From positions 1 to 21,141 of the forward strand of contig JBMNJG010000014.1 in the NCBI GenBank assembly GCA_050951545.1: 21,141 nucleotides of DNA, in the 5' to 3' direction. This document shows positions 242-20,752 of this stretch, in pieces. The position numbers were made by a program, and so were the translations under genes. Position 1 is the stretch's first letter; every line of letters starts with the position of its first letter. This DNA comes from Limnochordia bacterium (GTDB lineage: Bacteria > Bacillota > Limnochordia > DTU080). The notes below the pieces were generated by a model, which was not told the origin of the DNA, ran no database searches, and saw only the letters and a list, made by a program, of their open reading frames with translations.

Positions 242-415
242 ACGCGAAATCGCGGCGAACACCCGTTCCTACGGCTAACTCAGCGTATGTGAACTGCCTT
301 TTGCGAGGTGGGTCCGTAGGTTTAGACAGCAGTAGGGCATAAACCACCTTGGCTCGATTGTCTCGATGCGATGTTCGGTACGTGAGGCCAGAATCCTTCC
401 ACAGCTGTCGCTGAA
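242..415 (-). pseudogene. Remnant of a helix-turn-helix protein
   Basis: Part of ORF 228..482 reads LWKDSGL...AKVVYALLL...QFTYAELAVGTGVRRD, resembling a winged-HTH start; truncated, no RBS. Confidence 0.35.
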
Positions 416-480
416 AACGCGTGCATTGCCAGCTAAGACCCGGTGGCCACCGGGAGTGAAATGCATTTCGCCCTCGGATC

Positions 481-1055
481 ATCGGCTGAGTGGGAAAAGG
501 CTATCGACACTGTTTGGTTATGTAGTGCCCAGTAGCTCCAGAAGGGCCACCAAGGCGGGAAGGCGTACTCTTCTGGGGGGAAAAGAGCCCTTCGGGCGGT
601 CAAAATGAGCAAAAAGGGCACCGCGAAGGCCGCATCGCTGCACTTTTACCACGTACATTGTGCCCGGGGGTAAATGGGGCGGCTCTCTTGCCATCGCGGC
701 CACATCCTTAGCCTGGCCTCACGTACCAATCCGGGTGCATCTGTCCGACTACCGAGCCAGTCTCGCGAGCGTGTGCATGGTGTCCGTCCACCCTTTTCGA
801 AATATACCGACCCGGTTAGCACTGAAGGGTCGGTCCGCAGAGGGACCCGAGCGAGCCCGCCGTGATCGCGCACTGGAGAGCTGACCCAATCGACTGAGTG
901 GGAAAAGGCAGTCACTACCGTTCGGTTATGTGCTGCCCAGTAGCCCCAGAAGCGAAATCAAGGCCGGAAAGCGTGCCCTTAGGCGGGGAAAAGAGCCCTT
1001 CAGGCCGTCCAAACCAGCCAAAAGTGCTCCGCGAAGGCCGCATCGCTGCGCTTAT
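481..1055. repeat. Tandem ~408-bp repeat array, left part: unit A (481-888) and first 167 bp of unit B (889-1055)
   Basis: Units start ATCG(G/A)CTGAGTGGGAAAAGG at 481 and 889 and align without gaps over the 167 bp up to the IS insertion. Confidence 0.93.
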
Positions 1056-1169
1056 TGTTTTTGATAGCCTCAAGTAGGGCCAAATGATCATCGAGAATGA
1101 GGCCACCAAAATTATCCAATTCCCTGTATGCTTGAAGTTGCGAAACAGAGCATACGGGGGGAAACTGGA

Positions 1170-2151
1170 GTGGTTAAGGTGGCCAAGGTTAAGGATATCA
1201 TTCATCTCTACGAACGGGAAGACTGGTCCAAGCGAAAGATTGCGAAGCATTTCGGGATTTCGAGGGGGACAGTGGATCGCGTGGTGGCCAACCCCGACAG
1301 ATATCTGCCAAAGTCGGAGCCTGTCGATCGCACGTCGTCAAAGATGACCACCCAGATCATGGCCTTCATCGATGGCATCATCGAGAGCGACAAGAAGATC
1401 AACCGTGAGCAGCGCCATACGAGCAGGCGGATATGGGAAAGGGTCATTGAGGAGTTCGGCGAGGACAGCTCGCCGGCAGAGTCGACGGTACGGCGGTATG
1501 TGGGTAAGGTTAAGAAGCGCAATCCCGAGCCGTTCATCCCCCTGGGCTTCGTTGCGGGGCAGAGCATGCAAGGGGATTTTGGAGAGGTCACGGTAAAGAT
1601 CGACGGTGAGAAGTGCAGAGTCTATTTCTGGGCACAACGCTTGAGTTACAGCAGAGCCACATGCGTCAGCGTATACCCCCGGGCGACTCAGGAGTGCTTT
1701 CTGGACGGCCAGCAACGGGCCCTGCAGTTCTTCGATGGCGTTCCGGTGATGCATATCATCGACAATCTGAAGGCCGCTATCAAGAGTGGCTTAGGCAGAA
1801 ACGCCGTTGAGACCGAGCGCTTCGATGCCTTTCAGACTCACTACGGCTTTCGTACGGAGGCCTGCAACGGAGCATCGGGTAACGAAAAAGGCCAGGTAGA
1901 AAGCCTTGTGGGGTTCATCCAGAGAAACTGGTTCTCCGGATTGCCTGAGTTCAATACCTGGGAAGAGCTGATCGCGTATGTGGACGCGCAAAACGTGCGT
2001 TACCTAAAGCGTCACCACCCGGAGGAGAGGGGGCGTACGGTGGGCGAGCTCCTCGAGGAGGAACGCCGCGTCTTACGAGCGCTTCCACCGCCATTCCGGT
2101 GCTGCAAAGAGGGCCCGGTAACGGCTTCGAAGACCAGCCTCGTGATATATG
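1170..2151 (+). pseudogene. istA: IS21 transposase IstA, 5' part, interrupted by the nested element (ORF track 1128..2189)
   Basis: N-terminal HTH (KRKIAKHFGISRGTV), DDE motifs QGDFG / IIDNLKA / KGQVE; GTG at 1170 follows a G-rich RBS; frame reads ...SLVIY then enters the inner element. Confidence 0.9.
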
Positions 2152-2560
2152 TGGATACGCTTCACTTCGACCCTACCAAAATGGCCTAGAAAGCTCACGG
2201 TAAGCTAGGCCGGTAAAACAGTGCGCTCACCAAAAACCTGCCATCGATCCAGACCCCAAGCTGCGGGCCATGGATTCTGATGGACAACTCCTCCATGAGT
2301 TGCCCACAGACTCCACAGCCCCGACCAAAGACATCCATTGATTCATTTATTCGTTGTTTCTGGCTGTTATCTAGTTGGGCACGCAGTTGTTTTCTTCGCG
2401 ATGGTACGCGGCCGCGGTAGGGGCCAACCCCCGGAATGCAGAAAACCCTCTTCTCGGGAAAAGAGTGAGCGTTCGAAGCACCCCCTCCAAACGGCTTGGC
2501 GAACCCAAACGAGGGATCCTTCATACGCTCCTCGGCCTGTCCCAGGAGAGGAGGGTTTTC

Positions 2561-3180
2561 ATGTCTATCCTACAACGCATGGGGTTGAATCTCAACATTG
2601 GGTCTGACGAAATTGAGGTAGTGAATCCGCCGGAACCACCTCGGGTGTGCCCCAAGTGCCATGGCAAGCTCATCAAATGGGGGAGCTATCAGCGAGAGGT
2701 GACCCTAGAGGAGCATCTCGGCAGGGTGTTCAAGATCCGTGTGCGCCGGATGCGTTGCAAGAAATGCGGCGTTACTCACGCAGTACTGCCACACTTTCTC
2801 GCTCCTCACCAGCATTTCGCCACTTCCGTGCGGCAGAAGTTGGTAGAAAAGTGGGCGCTGGGACCTCGATGCGGTGCTTGGCCACCGAATTTCACTGCAG
2901 TGTGGACACGGTGCGCCGCTGGGTAAGACGTGTCCTTTGCCGGGCACCGCTGTTGGTTGAACTCATAGAACGGATGTATGGGATCTCCGGAGAATCTCTC
3001 GGCGCCGCGTGCAGCAATACCACAACAGGCCCTGTGGATGCGCGGCGAAAAGAGGTGGCCCGAATCCTTGAATGGGTAGCTCGTCTAGGGGAGTTGACGT
3101 TAGGCCAAACACTTACAGCACAAATAGGTAGCTGGGCTGCAGCTAACACGCAAGAGCCTTTTGGCGGAATGTGGTTGTAA
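2561..3180 (+). pseudogene. DUF6431-like zinc-ribbon protein with C-terminal HTH, frameshifted near 2855
   Basis: RBS AGGAGGG before ATG 2561; CPKC...WGSYQR...RRMRCKKCGVTHAVLPHFLAP in one frame, HTH (SMRCLATEFHCSVDTVRRWV) continuing in the frame of ORF 2647..3180. Confidence 0.75.
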
Positions 3181-3351
3181 CGGCAGATCAACAAAAGGTG
3201 CTTGTTTTGGCGCGCCCAAAAGAGGCGGCCCAATGTTTCTGAATCGTAGAACAGGCCCGCACCGCCAGCGACACCAACATACTGTGCCAGCTATCTCCCC
3301 CCGTGGTTTCGCGCGAAGATCAGGGTATCTCACTTTATGGAGGTGCCCGTG

Positions 3352-4260
3352 ATGGAGTGTCCGAGCATCACCGCCATTCCCTTAGGCGTGATTCGAGGAA
3401 ACGCTTTTCTGCGAGCCGCTGTCACCAAGAAGGAGATCGATCGCTGGAAAACGTTGTTCAGTCGACATGGCCCCCTTGCACCGTTAGTGGTTCGCCCCGC
3501 GAAAGACGGGGGCTTCCGTGTCATCGCCGGTGAACGGGAGCTCGAAGCTGCACGGGAACTGAAAGTTTCCACTGCAGATGTCGTCGTGGTTCCGCTCGAA
3601 AGTGACACCGAAGCCCACAAGCTGTCTCTACAACTGCTTTCCCTGCGGAACTCGCCAAATCACCTGGAAGAGGCCCTAATCATCCGTGAGGTCCTTTATG
3701 ACAAGACGGTTTCTCAGGCCGACTTGGCCAAGCTGTGCGGCCATTCGCTTAGCTGGGTCAGTAAGCGATTGCACTTGGTGCAATCGCTCGAGGACACGGT
3801 GATCGACTTAGTCTCGCAACGCGTCTTGGCCCCGGCAACGGCGCAAGAGATTGCCAAACTGCCGTCTGCACACCAACATGCCTTTGCGTGTCGCGTGGTC
3901 GCCGATCGAATCCCCAAATCTGTGGTTGAAAAGCTGGTCAGTCTGTACAACGCATCGGGCGCTTCGGACGAGCTGCGTAAGCGGATCTTAGCTTGCCCGC
4001 AAGACACGTTGGATGCCATCCGAAGGGACGCCGAAAGGCTTGGGCGGCCGGCGGTAGAGGAAGACGCCACCAACAAACGACTCGAAAAGGCATCGCGCCT
4101 TTTGGGTCGCCTGCTCGAAGAAATCGTGACTCTTGCTTCCACCCAGCCGCTGAGCCAACGCCAATGCACTATTGTTCGCCGCATCCGGGAGCTGTCGGAG
4201 GCCTTTGCCCTGCGCCTTGAAGTGCTTTTGGAAACGCCGAATTTTCCCCAGGGAAAATGA
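3352..4260 (+). CDS. ParB/RepB/Spo0J-family protein, IS-borne and divergent
   Basis: PLAPLVVRP...FRVIAGERELEAA ParB N-terminal domain; HTH SQADLAKLCGHSLSWVSKRLHL; RBS GGAGGTG before ATG 3352 (ORF track start 3337). Confidence 0.85.
   Translation: MECPSITAIPLGVIRGNAFLRAAVTKKEIDRWKTLFSRHGPLAPLVVRPAKDGGFRVIAGERELEAARELKVSTADVVVVPLESDTEAHKLSLQLLSLRNSPNHLEEALIIREVLYDKTVSQADLAKLCGHSLSWVSKRLHLVQSLEDTVIDLVSQRVLAPATAQEIAKLPSAHQHAFACRVVADRIPKSVVEKLVSLYNASGASDELRKRILACPQDTLDAIRRDAERLGRPAVEEDATNKRLEKASRLLGRLLEEIVTLASTQPLSQRQCTIVRRIRELSEAFALRLEVLLETPNFPQGK
4241..4258. promoter_or_regulatory. Palindrome ATTTTCCC-CA-GGGAAAAT, candidate ParB-type binding site
   Basis: 8-bp inverted arms in the last codons of the parB-like gene, just upstream of istA; function is inferred. 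Confidence 0.4.
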
Positions 4261-4275
4261 GAGGATGTGCCAGTC

Positions 4276-5772
4276 ATGACCATTGATGTGGACACTTACA
4301 ACAGGATTCGGCGTCTTTACGCGGTCGACAAAATGCCGCAACGCCGGATCGCCAGTGTGTTGGGCATTAGCCGCGACACAGTCGCTCGTTACTGCGAAGG
4401 GGAGAGATTGCCCGGCGAACGACAAAGGGCTCAGCCCAGGCGGACCCCTCTGCAAGAGATAGTCGAGCCTCTTATCCTTGAGTGCTTAGCCGCCAACGAA
4501 GAGGTAGCTAGAAAAAAGGATCGCATGGATGCCAAGGGCATATGGCGCTACCTGGTCGAAGAAAAAGGCATCGACATCGGGCAATCCACAGTGCGTCGTT
4601 TGGTGGCTAAACTGAAACACAAGACCCCCGAAGCGTTCATTCCCCTGTCTTTTAACCCCGGCGAAGCCATGCAGGTGGACTGGGGCGATGTCAACGCCGT
4701 CATTGGCGGCGTTGATACACCCGTCTCCATGTTCTGTGCCGTCTTGCCCTTCAGCTATTGCATCTTCGTCGCAGCGTTTCCCAACAAAAGCAAGGAGTCC
4801 TTCTTCACGGGTCATGTCATGGCCTTTGACTTCTTCAATGGCGTACCTAGGCGCTGCATCTACGACAATTTGAAGACCGCAGTTGCCGAGGGCTCCGGCG
4901 CCAATGCCAAAGAGCAAACAAGCTTCAACTTGATGGCCGCGCACTATGCCTTCGAGGCCATCTTCTGCAACGCCGCCGCCGGTTGGGAGAAGGGCGGGGT
5001 AGAAAACCTAGTGTCTATTGCGCGAGCTGCCGTCTTTACGCCCAAGCCCAAAGCTGCCAGCTTCCAGGAATTGCAGGAGATCATCCTCAATCGATGTCTA
5101 GCCTATCGCGAGAAACACAGGGCCCGCGGTCGCAAGCTCTCCGTTGCAGAGGCCTATGAACAGGAAAAAGAACACCTTCTGCCTCTGCCCAAAATGACAT
5201 TCGAGGCCGCCAAAGTAGCGATCACGAAAGTGGGTACCGATTGCACGGTCCGCTTCGATGGCAACAAATACTCCGTCCCCTGGAGTTTTGTCGGCCGCCA
5301 CGTAACGGTGCGGGCAACTCCGTTTGCCATCTTGGCTTTTCACGACGGCAAACTCATAGCAGAACACCGGCGCACCTATGTACGCAACGACCATCAATGG
5401 AATCCTGATCACTACCTTGAACTCTTGGAGCGGCGTCCCAGAGCAAAAGAGAATGCTGCGCCGCTAAAGCACGGGCAATGGCCACCCGATATTGTTCGGT
5501 TTCGTGAGCTTTACCAGGGAAGTAACCTTAATGAGGAGCTCGTGCGACTGCTGCGCCTCGCACGGCTTGTGGGTTCGGAGGCACTGCTAAAGGCCGTGGA
5601 GCATGTCAACAGCGAACAAGCCCCCACCTATGCCCTTGTGCTGTATCAAGTGCAGCAGATGGGTGTCTTACCTCCTATGGGATCGGATCCGGTGACCGTT
5701 GACCATAACGATCTCAGCCTTTACGATCAACTTCTCCCTCAGGAAGGTGGCCATGATGAGCGTCCAAAGTGA
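4276..5772 (+). CDS. istA: IS21 family transposase IstA (inner element), apparently intact
   Basis: ~500 aa; HTH (RRIASVLGISRDTVARY); QVDWG / YDNLKT / KGGVEN DDE triad; VRFDGNKYSVP C-terminal motif. Confidence 0.95.
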   Translation: MTIDVDTYNRIRRLYAVDKMPQRRIASVLGISRDTVARYCEGERLPGERQRAQPRRTPLQEIVEPLILECLAANEEVARKKDRMDAKGIWRYLVEEKGIDIGQSTVRRLVAKLKHKTPEAFIPLSFNPGEAMQVDWGDVNAVIGGVDTPVSMFCAVLPFSYCIFVAAFPNKSKESFFTGHVMAFDFFNGVPRRCIYDNLKTAVAEGSGANAKEQTSFNLMAAHYAFEAIFCNAAAGWEKGGVENLVSIARAAVFTPKPKAASFQELQEIILNRCLAYREKHRARGRKLSVAEAYEQEKEHLLPLPKMTFEAAKVAITKVGTDCTVRFDGNKYSVPWSFVGRHVTVRATPFAILAFHDGKLIAEHRRTYVRNDHQWNPDHYLELLERRPRAKENAAPLKHGQWPPDIVRFRELYQGSNLNEELVRLLRLARLVGSEALLKAVEHVNSEQAPTYALVLYQVQQMGVLPPMGSDPVTVDHNDLSLYDQLLPQEGGHDERPK

Positions 5773-6513
5773 CATCCAATCCCTAGCCCGCCGGCTTAGG
5801 CTTCCGGCCATTGCAGACTACCGAGAGTATCTTGCCGAGGACCCCGAGCCCCTCTTCCTTGAGGGGCTCTTGCAGCTCCTTCAAGCAGAGTTGGCCGGCC
5901 GGGAAGAACGCGGCTTTGCTCGTCGGCTTAAAGAATCACGGCTTTCCATGCTGAAGACGCTGGACGTCTTTGAACGCCATCGATTGCCGCACTTGCCAAG
6001 CACGCAGATCGATGAACTCCTACCTGTTCATTCATCCGGAACCACTACAACGTCCTTGCTGTGGGCAATTCCGGCACGGGCAAGACGCACTTGGGCATGG
6101 CCTTGGGCATCGAAGCCCTACGACAGGGTTTTTCGGTGCGCTTCGCCGGCGTCATGCCCCTTCTGGATCAGTTGATCGAAGCAAGGGACAACAAGGAATT
6201 GAGTCAGCAGATGCGGCCCCTTGAGAACTGCGATCTGCTTATCCTTGACGAGTTCGGCTACCTGCATCTGTCGCCACCGCAGGCCTCGATGCTCTTTCAG
6301 CTGTTCGCGATTCGCCACGAACGCAAAAGCACCTATGTGACTACAAACCTTGAGTTCTCCAAATGGGTGGACTCTATCGGCGATCTGACACTCACGGCAG
6401 CCTTGGTTGACTGATTTGCCCACAAATCCATTCTCCTCAACATGAACGGGCCGAGCTATCGCCTTGAGGAAGGGCGTGGAGCCACAAGGAACAAAAAAGC
6501 CCGGGAGCAATAG
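5753..6513 (+). pseudogene. istB: IS21 helper ATPase IstB (inner element), frameshift near 6020 and premature TGA at 6412-6414
   Basis: LARRLRLP N-terminus; Walker A GNSGTGKT and Walker B LLILDEFG in a second frame; ALVD*FAHKSILLNMNGPSYR, where the stop replaces the conserved Arg. Confidence 0.9.
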
Positions 6514-6614
6514 CCACCGTAGCCGACTTTCGCTGGCCTAGTTTTGATGAGCATACAGGGGGTCACGATGGAAACATCGCTGGCCCCCTTTCCTATGAGC
6601 GTTTCCAATATATG

Positions 6615-7150
6615 ACACAAACCAGTATTCTGTTCCGACGGAGAAACGACTGGAAGCGCTGACTCTTAGGGCCTATCCTTGGCATGTCGAAGTCCTCTGT
6701 GACCACCAGGTGATCGCAACGCACGTCAGGTCATACGTAAAGCGGACCGTCTCCTTTGAACTATCGCATTACCTGACGGCATTACTGCGCAAACCCCGTG
6801 CTCTGCCGTTTGCGAAGCCATTCCAGCGGGCTTGCCTCGAACCCATCATGCGGCAGCTCTATGATCGTCTGCTTGAGGTGGACCCTGATCGCGCTAATCG
6901 TCGCTGGATAGAGATTGCCATCTGGGGTATGGAGTTGGACCCGGCCAGGTTCTACAGAACTATTGAGCAGGCACTTAAGCTGGACCGATTTGATATGGAG
7001 AGCCTCCGTTACCTCCACACCCAGTTGGATTTGGAGCCGGGTCAGCCCAAGTCAGAACCGGCGAAGGTTGAGGATCGCCTGAGCTTCTCAATCGTACACG
7101 AATCGATCAATCGCTTCTCAGAGCTTCTTTCGGGGGGCATGGGCCTGTGA
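6615..7150 (+). pseudogene. istA: IstA 3' part of the outer IS21
   Basis: Rejoining 2151 to 6615 restores SLVIYDTNQYSVP...VIATHVR in frame, giving a 505-aa IstA from the 1170 start. Confidence 0.9.
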
Positions 7151-7912
7151 GTACAGAGGTGATACCTTCTTTACCTCAAGACGCTTGGACTACCCGGTAT
7201 TGCCCGTTCCTATGAGAAACTAGCCGCTCAGGCCCGGCGCGACCGTTGTGGATACGAGGAGTTCCTGCAGAGCCTTTTGCAGGAGGAGTTGCAGAATCGC
7301 AAAGTGAGCCGTGTTCGGACGCTCCTCAAATCGGCACGATTCCCTCTGCTGAAGCAGCTAGACACGTTTGAGTTCGACGAAATCCCTTCTCTCAACCGAC
7401 AAGTGGTGAAGGAGCTCGCCAGAAATCACTACATCCCCGCTAAGGAAAACGTCCTGATCTGTGGCAACAGCGGCACGGGAAAGACACATGTCGCCACCGC
7501 GTTAGGCATATCAGCCTGCGAAGCTGGGTACCGGGTCCGTTTCACCACAACGCAAGCGCTGGCAAACGACCTGCTTGCAGCCAGGGAGGAGCATTCACTC
7601 AACCGGTACGAAAAGCAGTGGTCGAGGATCGATTTGGCGATCATCGACGAGCTGGGGTACTTACCATTCGATGCGACTACGGCCCAACTCCTATTCCAGT
7701 TCATCTCCGCCCGCTACGAACTCGGGAGCATCATGATCACTACCAATCTCGAGTTTGCTCAGTGGACGGAAGTCTTCGGTGATGAGCGCATGACGATTGC
7801 CCTGCTCGACAGGCTGACCCATCGTGCACACATCCTACTCATGAACGGAGAAAGCTATCGGTTCAAGAACAACCGGCGCGCCGGCCAAGGAGGCGATGCG
7901 CCGAGCGCGTAA
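7147..7912 (+). CDS. istB: IS21 helper ATPase IstB (outer element), probable frameshift near 7165
   Basis: GNSGTGKT, IIDELGY, ITTNLEF, LDRLTH motifs; the GTG overlapping the istA stop (7147) is out of frame with LLYLKTLGLP..., whose frame has a TGA at 7160. Confidence 0.9.
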
Positions 7913-7977
7913 CCCCGACAGGGTGGCTCTATTCTGGTGATCAAATGGCCTCATTCTCGATTGACAAACACACTTAT

Positions 7978-8669
7978 ACCACGCACACTGGCTCCGGGGG
8001 TAAATGGGGCGGCTCTCTTGCCATCGCGGCCACATCCTTAGCCCGGCCTCACGTACCAATCCGGGTGCATCTGTCCGACTACCGAGCCAGTCTCGCGAGC
8101 GTGTGCATGGTGTCCGTCCACCCTTTTCGAAATATACCGACCGGGTTAGCACTGAAGGGTCGGTCCGCAGAGGGACCCGAGCGAGCCCGCTGTGATCGCG
8201 CACTGGGGAGCTGACCCCATCGACTGAGTGGGAAAAGGCTATCGACACTGTTCGGTTATGTGCTGCCCAGTAGCCCCAGAAGGGCCACCAAGGCGGGAAA
8301 GTGTGCCCTTAGGCGGTGAAAAGAGCCCTTCGGGCGATCAAAATCAGTAAAAAGGGCTCCGCGAAGCCCGCATCGCTGCGCTTTTACCACGTACATTGGG
8401 CCCGGGGGTTAATGAGGCGGCTCTCTTGCCATCGCGGCCACATCCTTAGCCCGGCCTCACATACCAATCCGGCTGGTGTCCGACTACCGAGCCTGTTTCG
8501 CGAGCGCGTCCATCGCATCTGTCCACCTTTTTCCAAATGCACCGACCGGGATAACAGTGAAGGTGGGTCCGCAGAGGGACCCGAGTGAGCCCGCCGTGAT
8601 CGAGCACTGGGGAGCGGATCCAATCGTTTGAGTGGGAAAAGGCAGTCACTACCGTTCGGTTATGTGCTG
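7978..8669. repeat. Tandem ~408-bp repeat array, right part: rest of unit B (7978-8218), unit C (8219-8622, 404 bp), partial unit D (8623-8669)
   Basis: 7978-8218 is nearly identical to 648-888; unit starts recur at 8219 and 8623. Confidence 0.93.
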
Positions 8670-9026: not shown

Positions 9027-10043
9027 TCACCCGTCAATCTTCTGGCGGGCACCACCTTCAGCCACAGACGTTAGAGCTGCGTTGGCCGCTTCGATAGCCC
9101 GCACACCGTCCCGGCCGCTGGCCAGATCGATCAGATGGCCTTTGGCGATCGAGGCGAGAAAAAGGTTGTACATCTCTGCGAAGGCTTTTCGGTAGCCTAT
9201 GTCCTCTCGACGCACGCCCTTGGGCGATTGTACGACAAGACGGAGCTTGCCGCCAGGAAGATGCTCTAGAAAAGCGGTGCCGTTATCTCCCTCGATGTCG
9301 ATGCGGTTGATGTGGTAGCGCTCTGACGACGTGACTGTATGTCCGAATACCCAGCTCTCGTCGATGACGGCTACTGCTCCGTTTGCCATCCGGCATGTCG
9401 CTACGACATGGTCGGGATAGGGATACTCCTCCATAAAAAGGCCATTTGCCATCACCTGGGAGTACTCGCTCTGAGAGAACCAACGAGCCAGGTCGAAGAA
9501 GTGAACGCCACAGTCAAAGATGGGTCCCTTTCCCTCGGTCATAAGCAAGCGATGGCGCTCAATACCAGCCCACCGGGGGCCTGACCAGTTGTAGACGAGA
9601 CGAAGAAAGCGAACATTTCCGATTTCACCTGCATCAATAGCCTTCTTAATCAGGCGGTGGGCAGCATCAGCTCGCAGTTCAAAGTTGACTGCCAGCAGAC
9701 GGTTGGCGTCCTCTGCGGCCTTAACCAGCTGCCAGCCGCGTTCGACAGTGTCGGTAATCGGTTTCTCGCAGAACACGTGCTTCCCAGCGGCCACTGCGTC
9801 CATAGCTATGGCGAAATGGCTGGTGACTGGAGTGGCTATGGTGACCGCGTCGATATCTTCCTGAGCCAGCAACTCCCGATAATCCGTGTACAGACGGCTG
9901 ACACCGTGCTTAGCACCTAGCTCTTTCAGGCGCGGGCCGTTGAGATCCGATAGAGCTACCAGAGAGGTCTCAGGATGCTCGGCTAACGCGGGGATGTGCC
10001 CGTATCCAGCTACTGTACCACAACCAATGACACCAAATCGCAC
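9027..10043 (-). CDS. Gfo/Idh/MocA family NAD(P)-dependent oxidoreductase
   Basis: GVIGCG Rossmann motif, AGKHVFCEKP, DCGVHFFD; RBS AGGAGG before GTG. Confidence 0.95.
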   Translation of the reverse strand: MRFGVIGCGTVAGYGHIPALAEHPETSLVALSDLNGPRLKELGAKHGVSRLYTDYRELLAQEDIDAVTIATPVTSHFAIAMDAVAAGKHVFCEKPITDTVERGWQLVKAAEDANRLLAVNFELRADAAHRLIKKAIDAGEIGNVRFLRLVYNWSGPRWAGIERHRLLMTEGKGPIFDCGVHFFDLARWFSQSEYSQVMANGLFMEEYPYPDHVVATCRMANGAVAVIDESWVFGHTVTSSERYHINRIDIEGDNGTAFLEHLPGGKLRLVVQSPKGVRREDIGYRKAFAEMYNLFLASIAKGHLIDLASGRDGVRAIEAANAALTSVAEGGARQKIDG

Positions 10044-18250: not shown

Positions 18251-18386
18251 GTGATGGGTCCTGACTGGCCGGGGTCGCAGCGATGGTTGCGGTCCCGGCT
18301 TTTCGCGGAAGTACGCGCAGGAGAGCAGAGTCAGCCTGACAGCGGTCTTTGGAGCACTTTGATGAGTCCTTTTGGGAGTGACGGAA

Positions 18387-19310
18387 ATGCAGATCATCCA
18401 GATACCTCTCAGCTTGGTGCAGGAAGACCCACAGCATGTTCGGCTCAGTTCTGACCCGAAGGGGATCGAGAACTTAGCGAAATCAATGAATGATGTTGGC
18501 CTTCTTCACCCCATTTTGGTAAGGAAGGTAGCCCACGGCTATCAGCTTGTGGCGGGTCAGAGACGGTTGAGGGCCGCGTCTAGGTTAGGGTATGAGTCTG
18601 TACCAGCCATCGTGCTAGAACCTGGCGTGCCAGTGCGGCAGGTGCAACTGGTTGAGAATCTGCAGCGCGAGGATCTTGATCCGGTAGAGCGGGCGTTGGC
18701 CATCAACCAGTTCATGATGGCAGAAAAACTGACCAAGGTGGCCGCAGCGGAGCGATTGGGGGTACCACGCACGACACTTACTGAGTGGCTAAATGTTCTC
18801 GAGGTTCCCGAGCGTTACCAGAAGGCTCTCGTCGAGAATTTTCGCGGTGGCGACTCTGCGCTCACGGTCTCGCATGTCTCGGAAGCGAAAGGTTTGGCGA
18901 GTCGTTTGCGTAGCCCTGGTCTTTGCACAATCGTGCTTGACGCTGTACTCGACTACAGGCTAAGCAAGGCTGAGACGCGTGAGGTCTGCGCCCTAGTACG
19001 GGAGAGCATGGATCTAAGTGTCGACGAGGCTGTGCTGGTGGTGCGTCGACCCTCTGAGATAAGCCGGCTGAGCGATGACTTGGGAGACGGGCGTTTAGCA
19101 GTAGAGCGCAATCTCGACAGATGGAGGTATGCACTGGAGCGTTCCACAACCACGTTGCTGGAGCTCGGGCGAATCTCACCGCGCTACCTGGCGCCAAACG
19201 AACGTCGGCGTCTGGTAGACAGGTTGCAGCACTTGCAGGAACTCGTGGAGGGCGCGCTGCAGCAGATGGCCGAAGAACGAGACGTGCGGAGAGCGGGTAA
19301 GGTCTCTTAA
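18387..19310 (+). CDS. ParB/RepB/Spo0J family protein (orphan paralogue)
   Basis: GLLHPILVR, LVAGQRRLRA, ENLQREDLDPVERA, HTH AAERLGVPRTTL. Confidence 0.92.
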   Translation: MQIIQIPLSLVQEDPQHVRLSSDPKGIENLAKSMNDVGLLHPILVRKVAHGYQLVAGQRRLRAASRLGYESVPAIVLEPGVPVRQVQLVENLQREDLDPVERALAINQFMMAEKLTKVAAAERLGVPRTTLTEWLNVLEVPERYQKALVENFRGGDSALTVSHVSEAKGLASRLRSPGLCTIVLDAVLDYRLSKAETREVCALVRESMDLSVDEAVLVVRRPSEISRLSDDLGDGRLAVERNLDRWRYALERSTTTLLELGRISPRYLAPNERRRLVDRLQHLQELVEGALQQMAEERDVRRAGKVS

Positions 19311-19802: not shown

Positions 19803-20752
19803 ATGAGCGTCTCGAGGTAGCCAACAAATGGATCGCAAAGGGCTACCCAGTGTCTTGGGTTCTACGCTTCGCGGGTGTTTCGCGCTCAACGTACTACTGG
19901 CGCCTCCAAAACCCGAAAGGAGGCAAAAAGCGAAAGCAGGGCGGCTCGCGTGGGCGACCAATTCCCGGATTCTCCTTCACCACGAAAGGCGAGATCGTTA
20001 GTGACGAGTGCATAAAGGAGCTTCTCTTGGCTGCCATCAGCGGCGACGGCTACCCCTATGGCTATCGCAAGCTGACGAGCTGGTTAAAGAGAGAGCACGG
20101 GCTCAGAATCAACAAGAAAAAAGTGTACAGACTCTGCAAAGAGCTAGGGATTTTGCAGACTCAACGTCGATTGCGGCCTCGCCTTGCGAAACGCAAGGTA
20201 GCCACGAACAGGGAAATCACAGGTATCAACCAGCTGTGGGAGACTGACATCAAGTATGGTTACATTGCCGAAGAACGTCGCTTCTTCTTCGTACAGACGG
20301 TGATAGATGTGTACGATCGCATGGTGCTCGACTATCACATTGGGCTCAGTTGCACGGCCGAGGAAGCCGCTGCAAGCATTCAGGGGGCCTGCCAGCGCCG
20401 AGCTACTGAGACTGGCGATGCTACCGTGATTATCCGCTCGGATAACGGACCGCAATTCGTGAGCCATCGCTTCCAAGCAGCATGCGAGGGACTCGGATTG
20501 GAGCATGAATGCATACCAGTAAGGACTCCGAACAAAAACGCCCACATCGAAGCCTTTCACTCGATACTGGAAGATGAATGCTTCAGCCGGTACGAGTTCA
20601 ACAGCTTCGCTGAGGCCTACGTGACAGTCGTTGAATTCATGGATTACTATAACCACCGCAGGCTTCACGGCTCCTTGCGGGATGTACCCCCGGCCGAGTA
20701 CCATGAAGCATGTGTGAGCAATACTGCGAGACCAACCGCTATCCGGCTCTAG
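19781..20752 (+). CDS. IS3 transposase OrfB (rve integrase core), expressed as an OrfAB fusion
   Basis: YGYRKL, WETDIKY, RSDNGPQF, NAHIEAFH, YNHRRLH motifs; ORF track 19850..20752. Confidence 0.93.
   Translation, partial: KKGDPSLDERLEVANKWIAKGYPVSWVLRFAGVSRSTYYWRLQNPKGGKKRKQGGSRGRPIPGFSFTTKGEIVSDECIKELLLAAISGDGYPYGYRKLTSWLKREHGLRINKKKVYRLCKELGILQTQRRLRPRLAKRKVATNREITGINQLWETDIKYGYIAEERRFFFVQTVIDVYDRMVLDYHIGLSCTAEEAAASIQGACQRRATETGDATVIIRSDNGPQFVSHRFQAACEGLGLEHECIPVRTPNKNAHIEAFHSILEDECFSRYEFNSFAEAYVTVVEFMDYYNHRRLHGSLRDVPPAEYHEACVSNTARPTAIRL

Follow-up and report, generated by a model that had tools for sequence, protein, structure and literature searches.

A four-gene IS21-family element with a ParB-like gene and a conserved palindrome before istA

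Does an IS21-family insertion sequence that holds four genes carry two of them as passengers, or as parts of its own machinery? The question is raised by the 21,141-nucleotide contig JBMNJG010000014.1 of a Limnochordia bacterium (GenBank assembly GCA_050951545.1), which is called the window below. Between positions 2152 and 6607 it contains an element in which the transposase gene istA and the helper ATPase gene istB are preceded, on the same strand, by orf1, encoding a zinc ribbon and a helix-turn-helix (HTH), and by a gene for a ParB-like protein. Described as having two genes, IS21 elements serve as a structural model of transposition under the control of an ATPase. We are highly confident that the four genes form a mobile IS21 unit of single origin, which is under purifying selection and holds a DNA dyad, or palindrome, fixed in position before istA. 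A fuller statement adds that the ParB-like protein uses this palindrome as an operator to control istAB; we infer the binding, and consider the statement as a whole to be evenly poised between right and wrong.

The left end of the element reads TGGATACGC from 2152 and the right end ...GAGCGTTTCCA up to 6607, giving TGG...CCA termini and a length of 4456 bp on the plus strand, and a 7-bp target-site duplication, ATATATG, is present at 2145–2151 on the left and at 6608–6614 on the right. The left terminal inverted repeat region (2152–2211, plus strand) starts with TGGATACGC and includes an inner repeat, GCTCACGGTAAGCTAGGCC, at 2193–2211; the right one (6535–6607, minus strand) finishes with ...GCGTTTCCA and includes two inner repeats of the GCTCAY-N-GGCC type. 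In its general form, GCTYAY-N(6–9)-GGCC, the inner motif has one copy close to the left end and two close to the right, likewise in the related element of metagenome contig L034, and of 11 loci seven show the terminal motif TGGNNACGC at the left end. The insertion target is the istA of a second, ordinary two-gene IS21, referred to here as the host IS21. Its left part covers 1056–2151 (plus strand; istA from 1128, interrupted) and its right part 6615–7973 (plus strand; the rest of istA, and istB at 7277–7912). Two paralogues in the same genome (C10:61403–63856 and C3:88558–~91026; 98–99% identical) are uninterrupted and represent the empty site, reading ...GTGACATATGACAC...; both copies of ATATATG carry T where these paralogues have C. 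An earlier note on this DNA had given the coordinates, the 4456-bp size, the exact ends and the 7-bp duplication, all of which proved correct and agree with the empty-site paralogues. Its proposal that the four co-oriented genes moved as one unit is borne out by the duplication and the empty site, and by three further lineages in which the four genes lie together between element ends.

The genome contains one full-length copy of the four-gene element and otherwise only three fragments, in C7, C11 and C13, which have the same left end and unrelated flanks. The left end begins at the same TGG in C11 and C13, and in C7 the match begins one base in, with GGATACGC. The C7 and C11 fragments comprise the left end only; in C13 the left 344 bp of the element are joined to 3837–4505. 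Two of these three solo left-end fragments (C13:19300–20303, C7:70981–71327 and C11:344585–344818) stop at element positions 344 and 348, a shared breakpoint at about window 2495–2499. In the left non-coding region of the element, some 80–90 bp (window 2258–2354) are also 84–88% identical to C9:54040–54498, C7:587358–587445, C2:70317–71053 and C4:35227–35280, and the C9 sites adjoin another istA fragment (C9:54589–55256).

The window copy is defective. Its orf1 (2561–3180, plus strand) encodes a Cys4 zinc ribbon of the DUF6431 family followed by the HTH, and the start at 2561 is preceded by a purine-rich ribosome-binding site. The gene is broken by a frameshift near 2836–2851: the first frame runs from 2561 to 2926, and the −1 frame, which carries the HTH part, continues to 3180, a tblastn search with the L034 orf1 switching frame in the same way. 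Metagenome contig L033, 99% identical to the window, has the same frameshift. A programmed frameshift was considered and rejected, as no X XXY YYZ heptamer is found at the shift and orf1 is in a single frame in the relatives L034 and P0011; for these reasons we take the frame change to be a mutation. The ParB-like gene (3337–4260, plus strand) is open and encodes 307 amino acids, comprising ParB_N, HTH_ParB and a helical C-terminal domain, with the GERR and ENLQR motifs for cytidine triphosphate (CTP) lost. Its stop codon, TGA at 4258–4260, lies 15 bp before the istA ATG at 4276, as the earlier note had it, and the palindrome TTTTCCCCAGGGAAAA (4242–4257; 14-mer core 4243–4256) falls within the last parB codons, 20 nt before that ATG. 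istA (4276–5772, plus strand) is open as well, with 498 amino acids from the ATG and an alternative start, GTG, at 4267. The product scores 254 bits with the NCBIfam model transpos_IS21 (NF033546; cut-off 160) and 77.8 bits with Pfam Mu-transpos_C_2, and is 75% identical to the L034 IstA by tblastn. istB survives as a remnant (5753–6513, plus strand) directly downstream of istA, which it overlaps. It is frameshifted near 6020, and an in-frame TGA (6412–6414) falls where the IstB of the host IS21 reads ...LDRL...; a 117-residue piece still scores 110.9 bits with Pfam IstB_IS21, and the gene is thus present, if broken. Intact istB genes of 248–257 codons are found in L031, L035 and L036 (tblastn identity to the window 50–76%). 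Because orf1 and istB are both broken, the window copy is unable to transpose on its own.

Two features of this stretch were set aside. At 4258–4275 the parB-like gene and istA are in one frame with a single TGA between them; a ParB–IstA fusion by stop-codon read-through was rejected as a family feature, since the two frames differ in L034, L031 and other elements. A minus-strand open reading frame (ORF) of 109 codons at 2195–2524, in the left non-coding region, had no Pfam hit, the middle of this region is not conserved in L034, and the ORF was not counted as a gene. A scan of the window with Rfam gave no match, and Tandem Repeats Finder returned no rows.

By its transposase, helper, ends and duplication, the element can be assigned firmly to IS21. 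It shares with canonical members (IS21, IS5376) an IstA above the IS21-model cut-off, an IstB helper ATPase, TG...CA ends and repeated inner sites, as well as target duplications, of 7 bp in the window and 6 bp in the related element L080, and IstAs that nest among those of two-gene IS21s. It differs from them in having four co-oriented genes, a length of 4.2–4.8 kb and a conserved internal palindrome before istA.

Elements were collected through the ParB-like protein, which yielded 12 distinct elements with readable context. They came from genome contigs (a Limnochordia and a Fusobacteriales metagenome-assembled genome (MAG)), from six metagenome loci, among them one near-identical partial copy of the window element and one weak 1-kb match that was left unused, and from a sample of 401 genomes of the window's phylum. 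This sample contributed six genomes, G000 included, of six different families; the searches centred on G061 and on G000 count as one sample and returned the same five genomes. istA lies directly downstream of the parB-like gene in all 12 elements, orf1 lies upstream in 11 (the contig of the twelfth, L049, ends ∼150 bp past the parB start), and istB is seen in 10, the contigs of the other two ending inside istA. The synteny that the earlier note had proposed to look for recurs, and the order orf1–parB-like–istA–istB is found in Bacillota genomes, in the Fusobacteriales MAG and in metagenome contigs. Four-gene elements range from 4.2 to 4.8 kb. L035 and L036 are 91% identical across 4164 bp that enclose all four genes, and their flanks diverge on both sides; L034 has ends similar to those of the window element, 4452 bp apart; and in L080 inverted ends of 27 bp (TGGATACGCTA...) are accompanied by a duplication of 6 bp, CTTTTT. 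Metagenome contigs L034, L035 and L036 showed no target duplication, perhaps as a result of the assembly of multi-copy elements. L080 also shows two peculiarities of its own: its istA is split by an insert of ∼4.4 kb (L080 3581–7750, reverse complement of G195:C2:190000–204000) with three co-oriented ORFs of 417, 629 and 349 amino acids, and an additional ORF of 100 amino acids (9606–9908) separates istB from the right end.

The ParB-like protein is rare. Only nine proteins were retrieved from 5.8 billion clusters, eight of them at 50–99% identity, one of these being a 207-residue fragment, and a profile search of 1.84 billion representatives gave 85 proteins of the family at E ≤ 1e-30; judged by these searches, the family is small. 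In 61 taxonomic relatives the protein was not found, the matches being ordinary ParB homologues of ≤ 35% identity, and collections of plasmids and phages searched with two of the ParB-like proteins gave no match.

To place the transposases, the same 401 genomes were searched with an IstA profile, which matched in 74 of them. Four ParB-linked IstAs score 807–826 bits, but these are themselves rows of the search profile; two ParB-linked IstAs outside the profile reach ∼1.5 bits per position, and the next-best IstA 1.13. The 24 next-best IstA loci were plain istA–istB pairs with no conserved upstream ORF. In a maximum-likelihood tree of 32 IstAs (nine ParB-linked, 22 from two-gene elements of the same phylum, and the host IS21), the nine ParB-linked proteins form one clade with 100/100 support and a branch length of 0.87, nested among the two-gene IS21s. 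The IstA of the window's host IS21 lies far outside this clade, at ∼32% identity. Among four-gene elements IstA identity falls to ∼41%. The ParB tree recovers the pairs window–L034 and L031–L037 and places L035 and L036 next to each other on very short branches with an unresolved fork, its deeper forks being open. The ratio of non-synonymous to synonymous substitution rates (dN/dS) between L035 and L036 is 0.16 for orf1, 0.17 for parB, 0.08 for istA and 0.05 for istB, and the left non-coding end of the two is 97.9% identical. Purifying selection on orf1 and parB is therefore supported by this one close pair. Collectively, the results argue for a single acquisition of the two extra genes and their long retention while IstA diverged, which makes orf1 and the parB-like gene dedicated accessory genes rather than cargo. 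This is how the earlier note had seen them, as marks of a four-gene IS21 subgroup, and the synteny in 12/12 elements, the enclosing ends, the 100/100 IstA clade and the purifying selection all fit its proposal. It had also named an outcome that would speak the other way, namely that the closest IstA homologues usually lack the two genes; the nine ParB-linked IstAs instead form a clade of their own, and the proposal withstands this check.

What kind of protein is encoded next to istA? The window protein matches Pfam ParB_N (PF02195, 30.5 bits; cut-off 26.3) and HTH_ParB (PF17762, 32.9 bits; cut-off 22.6). Among NCBIfam models, nucleoid_noc (TIGR04285) ranks first, though well below its cut-off, and parB_part (TIGR00180) follows at 58.2 bits, just under its cut-off of 58.45. 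The best PDB relatives by sequence are three entries of Noc, at ∼24% identity. An AlphaFold2 model with a predicted local distance difference test score (pLDDT) of 92.7 gave Noc as the best Foldseek match (7nfu, E 1.4e-11), followed by ParB and then by KorB (8qa9, E 4.9e-8). Fold and domain order (ParB_N, HTH, helical C-terminal domain) are shared with Noc and chromosomal ParB, and the element has a dyad that resembles the Noc-binding site (NBS). The element's protein differs from both in the loss of GERRxR and ENLQR, the absence of a ParA and the presence of one transposon-encoded site per element. Specifically, GERRWRA of Noc aligns with GERELEA and ALIENLQRE with SLQLLSLRN; across a 12-row alignment the arginine patch reads GERE, GEAE, GQPE, GEPE, GSCE, GECE, GACE or GESD. 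The CTP-binding arginines are found in none of the 12 rows, nor in the consensus of 61 family members. In contrast to this patch, the HTH is near-invariant across the family (S-x-S-W-V-S-K-R ... AQEIAKLP).

The resemblance to Noc bears on two other explanations. ParB-family proteins have many roles, and with a division regulator as the best family match, orf1 and the ParB-like protein could be cargo that serves the host or the persistence of the element, by interfering with nucleoid or division functions or by silencing neighbouring DNA, and take no part in transposition. We regard this as very improbable: 12/12 elements have the genes in one order and orientation and at close spacing, the genes were acquired once and kept for long, a cognate-looking site stands exactly before istA, and the score with the Noc equivalog model falls well short of the cut-off (66.7 versus 315 bits). 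The earlier note had also offered partition of excised circular or tandem intermediates as a role for the ParB-like protein, for which the ParB fold and a palindromic, centromere-like site would speak. The comparison speaks against that option: no ParA-type gene was found among the ORFs of any element, and the arginine patch and ENLQR box of the CTP clamp are lost throughout the family. IS21 intermediates, moreover, are not known to be replicons, and partition strikes us as barely credible.

A clue to function is given by the palindrome. What appears in the protein alignment as an invariant ParB C-terminus, FPQGK, is at the DNA level the palindrome TTTCCCC(G/A)GGGAAA or a close variant of it, located in every element at the parB/istA junction, 11–30 nt before the istA start and just upstream of the istA ribosome-binding site. 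L031 and L037 carry the variant TTGCCCCGGGGCAA, and the sites of L043 and L049 have a one-base change. Depending on the frame the palindrome is read as FPQGK, SPGK or FAPGQ, and in L035 it lies within the istA frame; being kept in different reading frames, it must be conserved as nucleotides. A change of T to G at position 3 is matched by A to C at the mirror position, such that the dyad is kept. There is one copy per element (two in L037), against a chance expectation of 0.01 per window for the degenerate pattern. Among 110 loci the palindrome was found in 27, all of them element-bearing, and in none of the 83 others (two-gene IS21s, ordinary ParB loci and DUF6431 loci). Of the 30 best family representatives, 28 are full-length, and 21 of these bear a recognizable imprint of it at the C-terminus, which becomes fainter at lower ranks; in a 61-row alignment, 31 rows are of the T/A type, nine of the G/C type and 21 of neither.

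The dyad can be compared with the published consensus sites of Noc and ParB: NBS, TATTTCCC-GGGAAATA, and parS, TGTTTCAC-GTGAAACA (PMC7383237). When centred, the 16-bp element dyad TTTTCCCC-AGGGAAAA agrees with this NBS consensus at 6/8 half-site positions, and an NBS-like dyad is present at the 3′ end of the parB-like gene in 12/12 elements. The same source names residues 173, 179, 184 and 201 as determinants of specificity (PMC7383237). By an alignment reading, which places them approximately, the recognition helix of the element's protein has L, R and Q/S/T at these positions, with a basic residue at 179. To this approximation, it would carry a different specificity code.

We propose that a dimer of the ParB-like protein uses the invariant HTH to bind the palindrome. 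Having lost the arginine patch for CTP and the ENLQR box, the protein would stay in place on its operator and not slide along the DNA as a clamp. Bound at the junction, it would gate the transcription or translation that enters istA–istB and so set the frequency of transposition, a mode of control that might resemble those of IS1 InsA, IS3-type OrfA and the repressor/operator of phage Mu. orf1 may provide a second element-specific DNA binder that works with the transposase/ATPase pair, as DUF6431 proteins may do before other DDE + AAA+ transposons. Regulation is favoured over target choice by the location of the palindrome before istA.

The same location, adjoining the istA ribosome-binding site, would suit a palindrome that acts as RNA, through a hairpin or anti-Shine–Dalgarno pairing that controls translation of istA, with the ParB-like protein binding elsewhere. 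Symmetric covariation is as readily explained by a stem as by a protein dyad, and in a fold of the L036 sequence the istA ribosome-binding site has its GGAGG base-paired to the UUUCCCC half. On the other hand, the folds are no more stable than those of shuffled sequences in 4/4 sequences tested (z −0.7 to +1.3), the dyad has no spacer, as is typical of DNA sites for dimers, and leaves a loop of only 3–4 nt, and its likeness to a Noc site beside a gene for a Noc-like protein would be a coincidence. Control at the RNA level is thus unlikely in our estimation.

A different division of labour is suggested by orf1. The fragment in the window scores 53.9 bits with Pfam DUF6431 (PF20020; cut-off 26.6) and the L034 orf1, likewise a Cys4 DUF6431 domain with an HTH, 47.1 bits; HTH_23/HTH_28 matches in the second orf1 frame are below cut-off. 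The DUF6431 part shows a likeness to the zinc-finger DNA-binding regions at the N-termini of ISL3, IS66 and ISH6 transposases, with scores far under the cut-offs. DUF6431 was detected in 70 of the 401 genomes, often in multiple copies (up to six per genome). Among the 30 best-scoring DUF6431 loci (L081–L110), 22 have a co-oriented downstream ORF of at least 90 amino acids, at least 400 in 13 of them. Ten of these 22 ORFs were scanned (nine of at least 400 amino acids and one of 274), and 10/10 encode HTH-rve transposases, 8/10 matching Mu-transpos_C as well. These loci appear to represent a separate, widespread three-gene transposon type. Likewise, a 2026 preprint and a table in a 2025 paper report, respectively, a 15-copy cassette of DUF6431, DDE transposase and AAA ATPase in a Clostridium genome, and DUF6431 adjoining a DDE transposase. 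The three-gene cassettes of Bacillota resemble the four-gene elements in having DUF6431 first, before a transposase/ATPase pair, and in being multi-copy. They differ in a transposase of the rve + Mu-transpos_C (PF09299) type, which is at most ∼31% identical to the IstAs studied here (partial alignments), and in the absence of a ParB-like gene and of the palindrome.

Such a distribution of DUF6431, before the DDE + AAA+ pairs of another family in 10/10 tested loci and in the 15-copy cassette, would fit a role of orf1 and the ParB-like protein as transpososome or target-choice factors, comparable to TniQ/TnsD for TnsB/TnsC, the palindrome being an assembly or enhancer site like the internal activation sequence of Mu. 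The weak likeness to transposase zinc-finger regions points the same way, and a ParB N-domain relieved of the CTP switch would be free to serve as a protein-contact domain. The few mapped insertions show no common target, however (the duplication is ATATATG in istA and CTTTTT in L080, and the left flanks in C7, C11 and C13 are unrelated), and the enhancer or target-selector role is drawn from analogy only. Like control through RNA, it has in our view a small chance of being right. A combined proposal seems to us a tentative one, somewhat short of an even chance: a Noc/ParB-derived protein without CTP switch and its NBS-like dyad may have been recruited by an IS21 lineage as an internal operator or enhancer that times the production or assembly of IstA–IstB, and DUF6431 may be a general, unrecognized third subunit of Mu/IS21-type DDE + AAA+ transposons, with a role like that of TniQ/TnsD.

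The orf1 of the other elements matches in position and size but has neither zinc-ribbon cysteines nor a DUF6431 hit. AlphaFold2 predicts for this cysteine-less type a beta hairpin followed by helices (pLDDT 66.6); Foldseek found nothing in PDB at E ≤ 0.001, the best match being the Sap1 DNA-binding domain (E 0.06). A complex of the L035 orf1 product and ParB-like protein, predicted with alignments, supported no contact and gives no evidence either way.

Several observations weigh against operator control by the ParB-like protein, or against the unity of the four-gene group. The synteny counts cover elements that were found through the ParB-like protein and had readable context, the 85 representatives from the profile search contributing none, and the dN/dS values come from one element pair only. 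We found no HTH residue of the recognition helix that changes in step with the palindrome variants; among non-trivial alignment columns residue 132 came out best, and only columns encoded by the motif itself separate the classes, which may simply be clades. We found no convincing promoter near the palindrome, inspection by eye being inconsistent across elements, and a promoter and terminator scan of 2100–6700 gave counts no higher than in shuffled sequences. The palindrome could be bound by orf1, IstA or a host factor instead, and it can form an RNA hairpin of 6–7 bp, with the CCCC half pairing with the istA Shine–Dalgarno sequence in one fold. As for orf1, the genes of L031, L035 and L036 had no Pfam hit, and for L032 and L037 the one match was unrelated, weak and below cut-off. 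Homology of the two orf1 types was not shown by profile comparison, which was not significant (hhalign probability 3%, E 0.014); the types are linked by a language-model look-up alone, in which 22/30 hits were clusters with some DUF6431 members.

Parallels to the proposed control exist outside IS21. IS1 InsA, IS3/IS911 OrfA and the Mu repressor are element-encoded DNA binders whose genes lie upstream of the transposase gene and whose site is inside the element. They differ from the ParB-like protein in having no sequence or fold relation to it, and in binding ends or an early operator rather than a ParB-type dyad. KorB, which was among the fold matches (8qa9), forms with KorA of plasmid RK2 a pair of a ParB-fold repressor and a small second DNA-binding partner, reminiscent of the ParB-like protein and orf1; KorB is a CTP-dependent clamp, whereas the element's protein is without CTP motifs. 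A published description of IS21 has two reading frames between inverted repeats (PMC10122671). Our literature search found no description of a ParB-like–IstA–IstB layout in IS21, nor of such passenger genes in this family; ISfinder lay outside the comparison. Taken together, the two extra genes and the palindrome suggest that the element has a control module of its own, of a sort not yet described in the well-studied IS21 family. A clade that keeps two DNA-binding genes and a ParB-type site across deep divergence would add a layer of control or targeting to the two-gene model. If the proposal is true, the ParB fold has been reused without its CTP switch and outside the segregation of chromosomes and plasmids, and the uncharacterized DUF6431 gains a testable role. 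In annotation, the elements are mislabelled as ‘partition protein’ plus ‘IS21 transposase’, which may mislead plasmid and origin calls in metagenome bins.

The surroundings of the element are repetitive. The host IS21 lies within a repeat of ∼410–430 bp (window 388–1053 and 7971–8669), which occurs in tandem arrays at C2, C3, C4, C5, C6, C7, C10, C11, C12 and C16, its copies being 78–92% alike; the C7 and C11 left-end fragments of the four-gene element also lie within such arrays. A near-palindrome, TTGCCCAGGGGCAA, recurs at 141–142-bp spacing, four times in G000 C16:38391–38817 and twice in C3:91066–91207, where the copies stand just past the right end of the host-type IS21. A second ParB-type ORF in the window (18372–19310, 312 amino acids) keeps, by eye, GQRRLRA and ENLQRED, unlike the element's ParB-like protein. 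Finally, an ORF of 300 amino acids at 19850–20752 resembles, on inspection by eye, the integrase core (OrfB) of IS3-type transposases, and with this ORF as well, the 21-kb contig is rich in insertion sequences.

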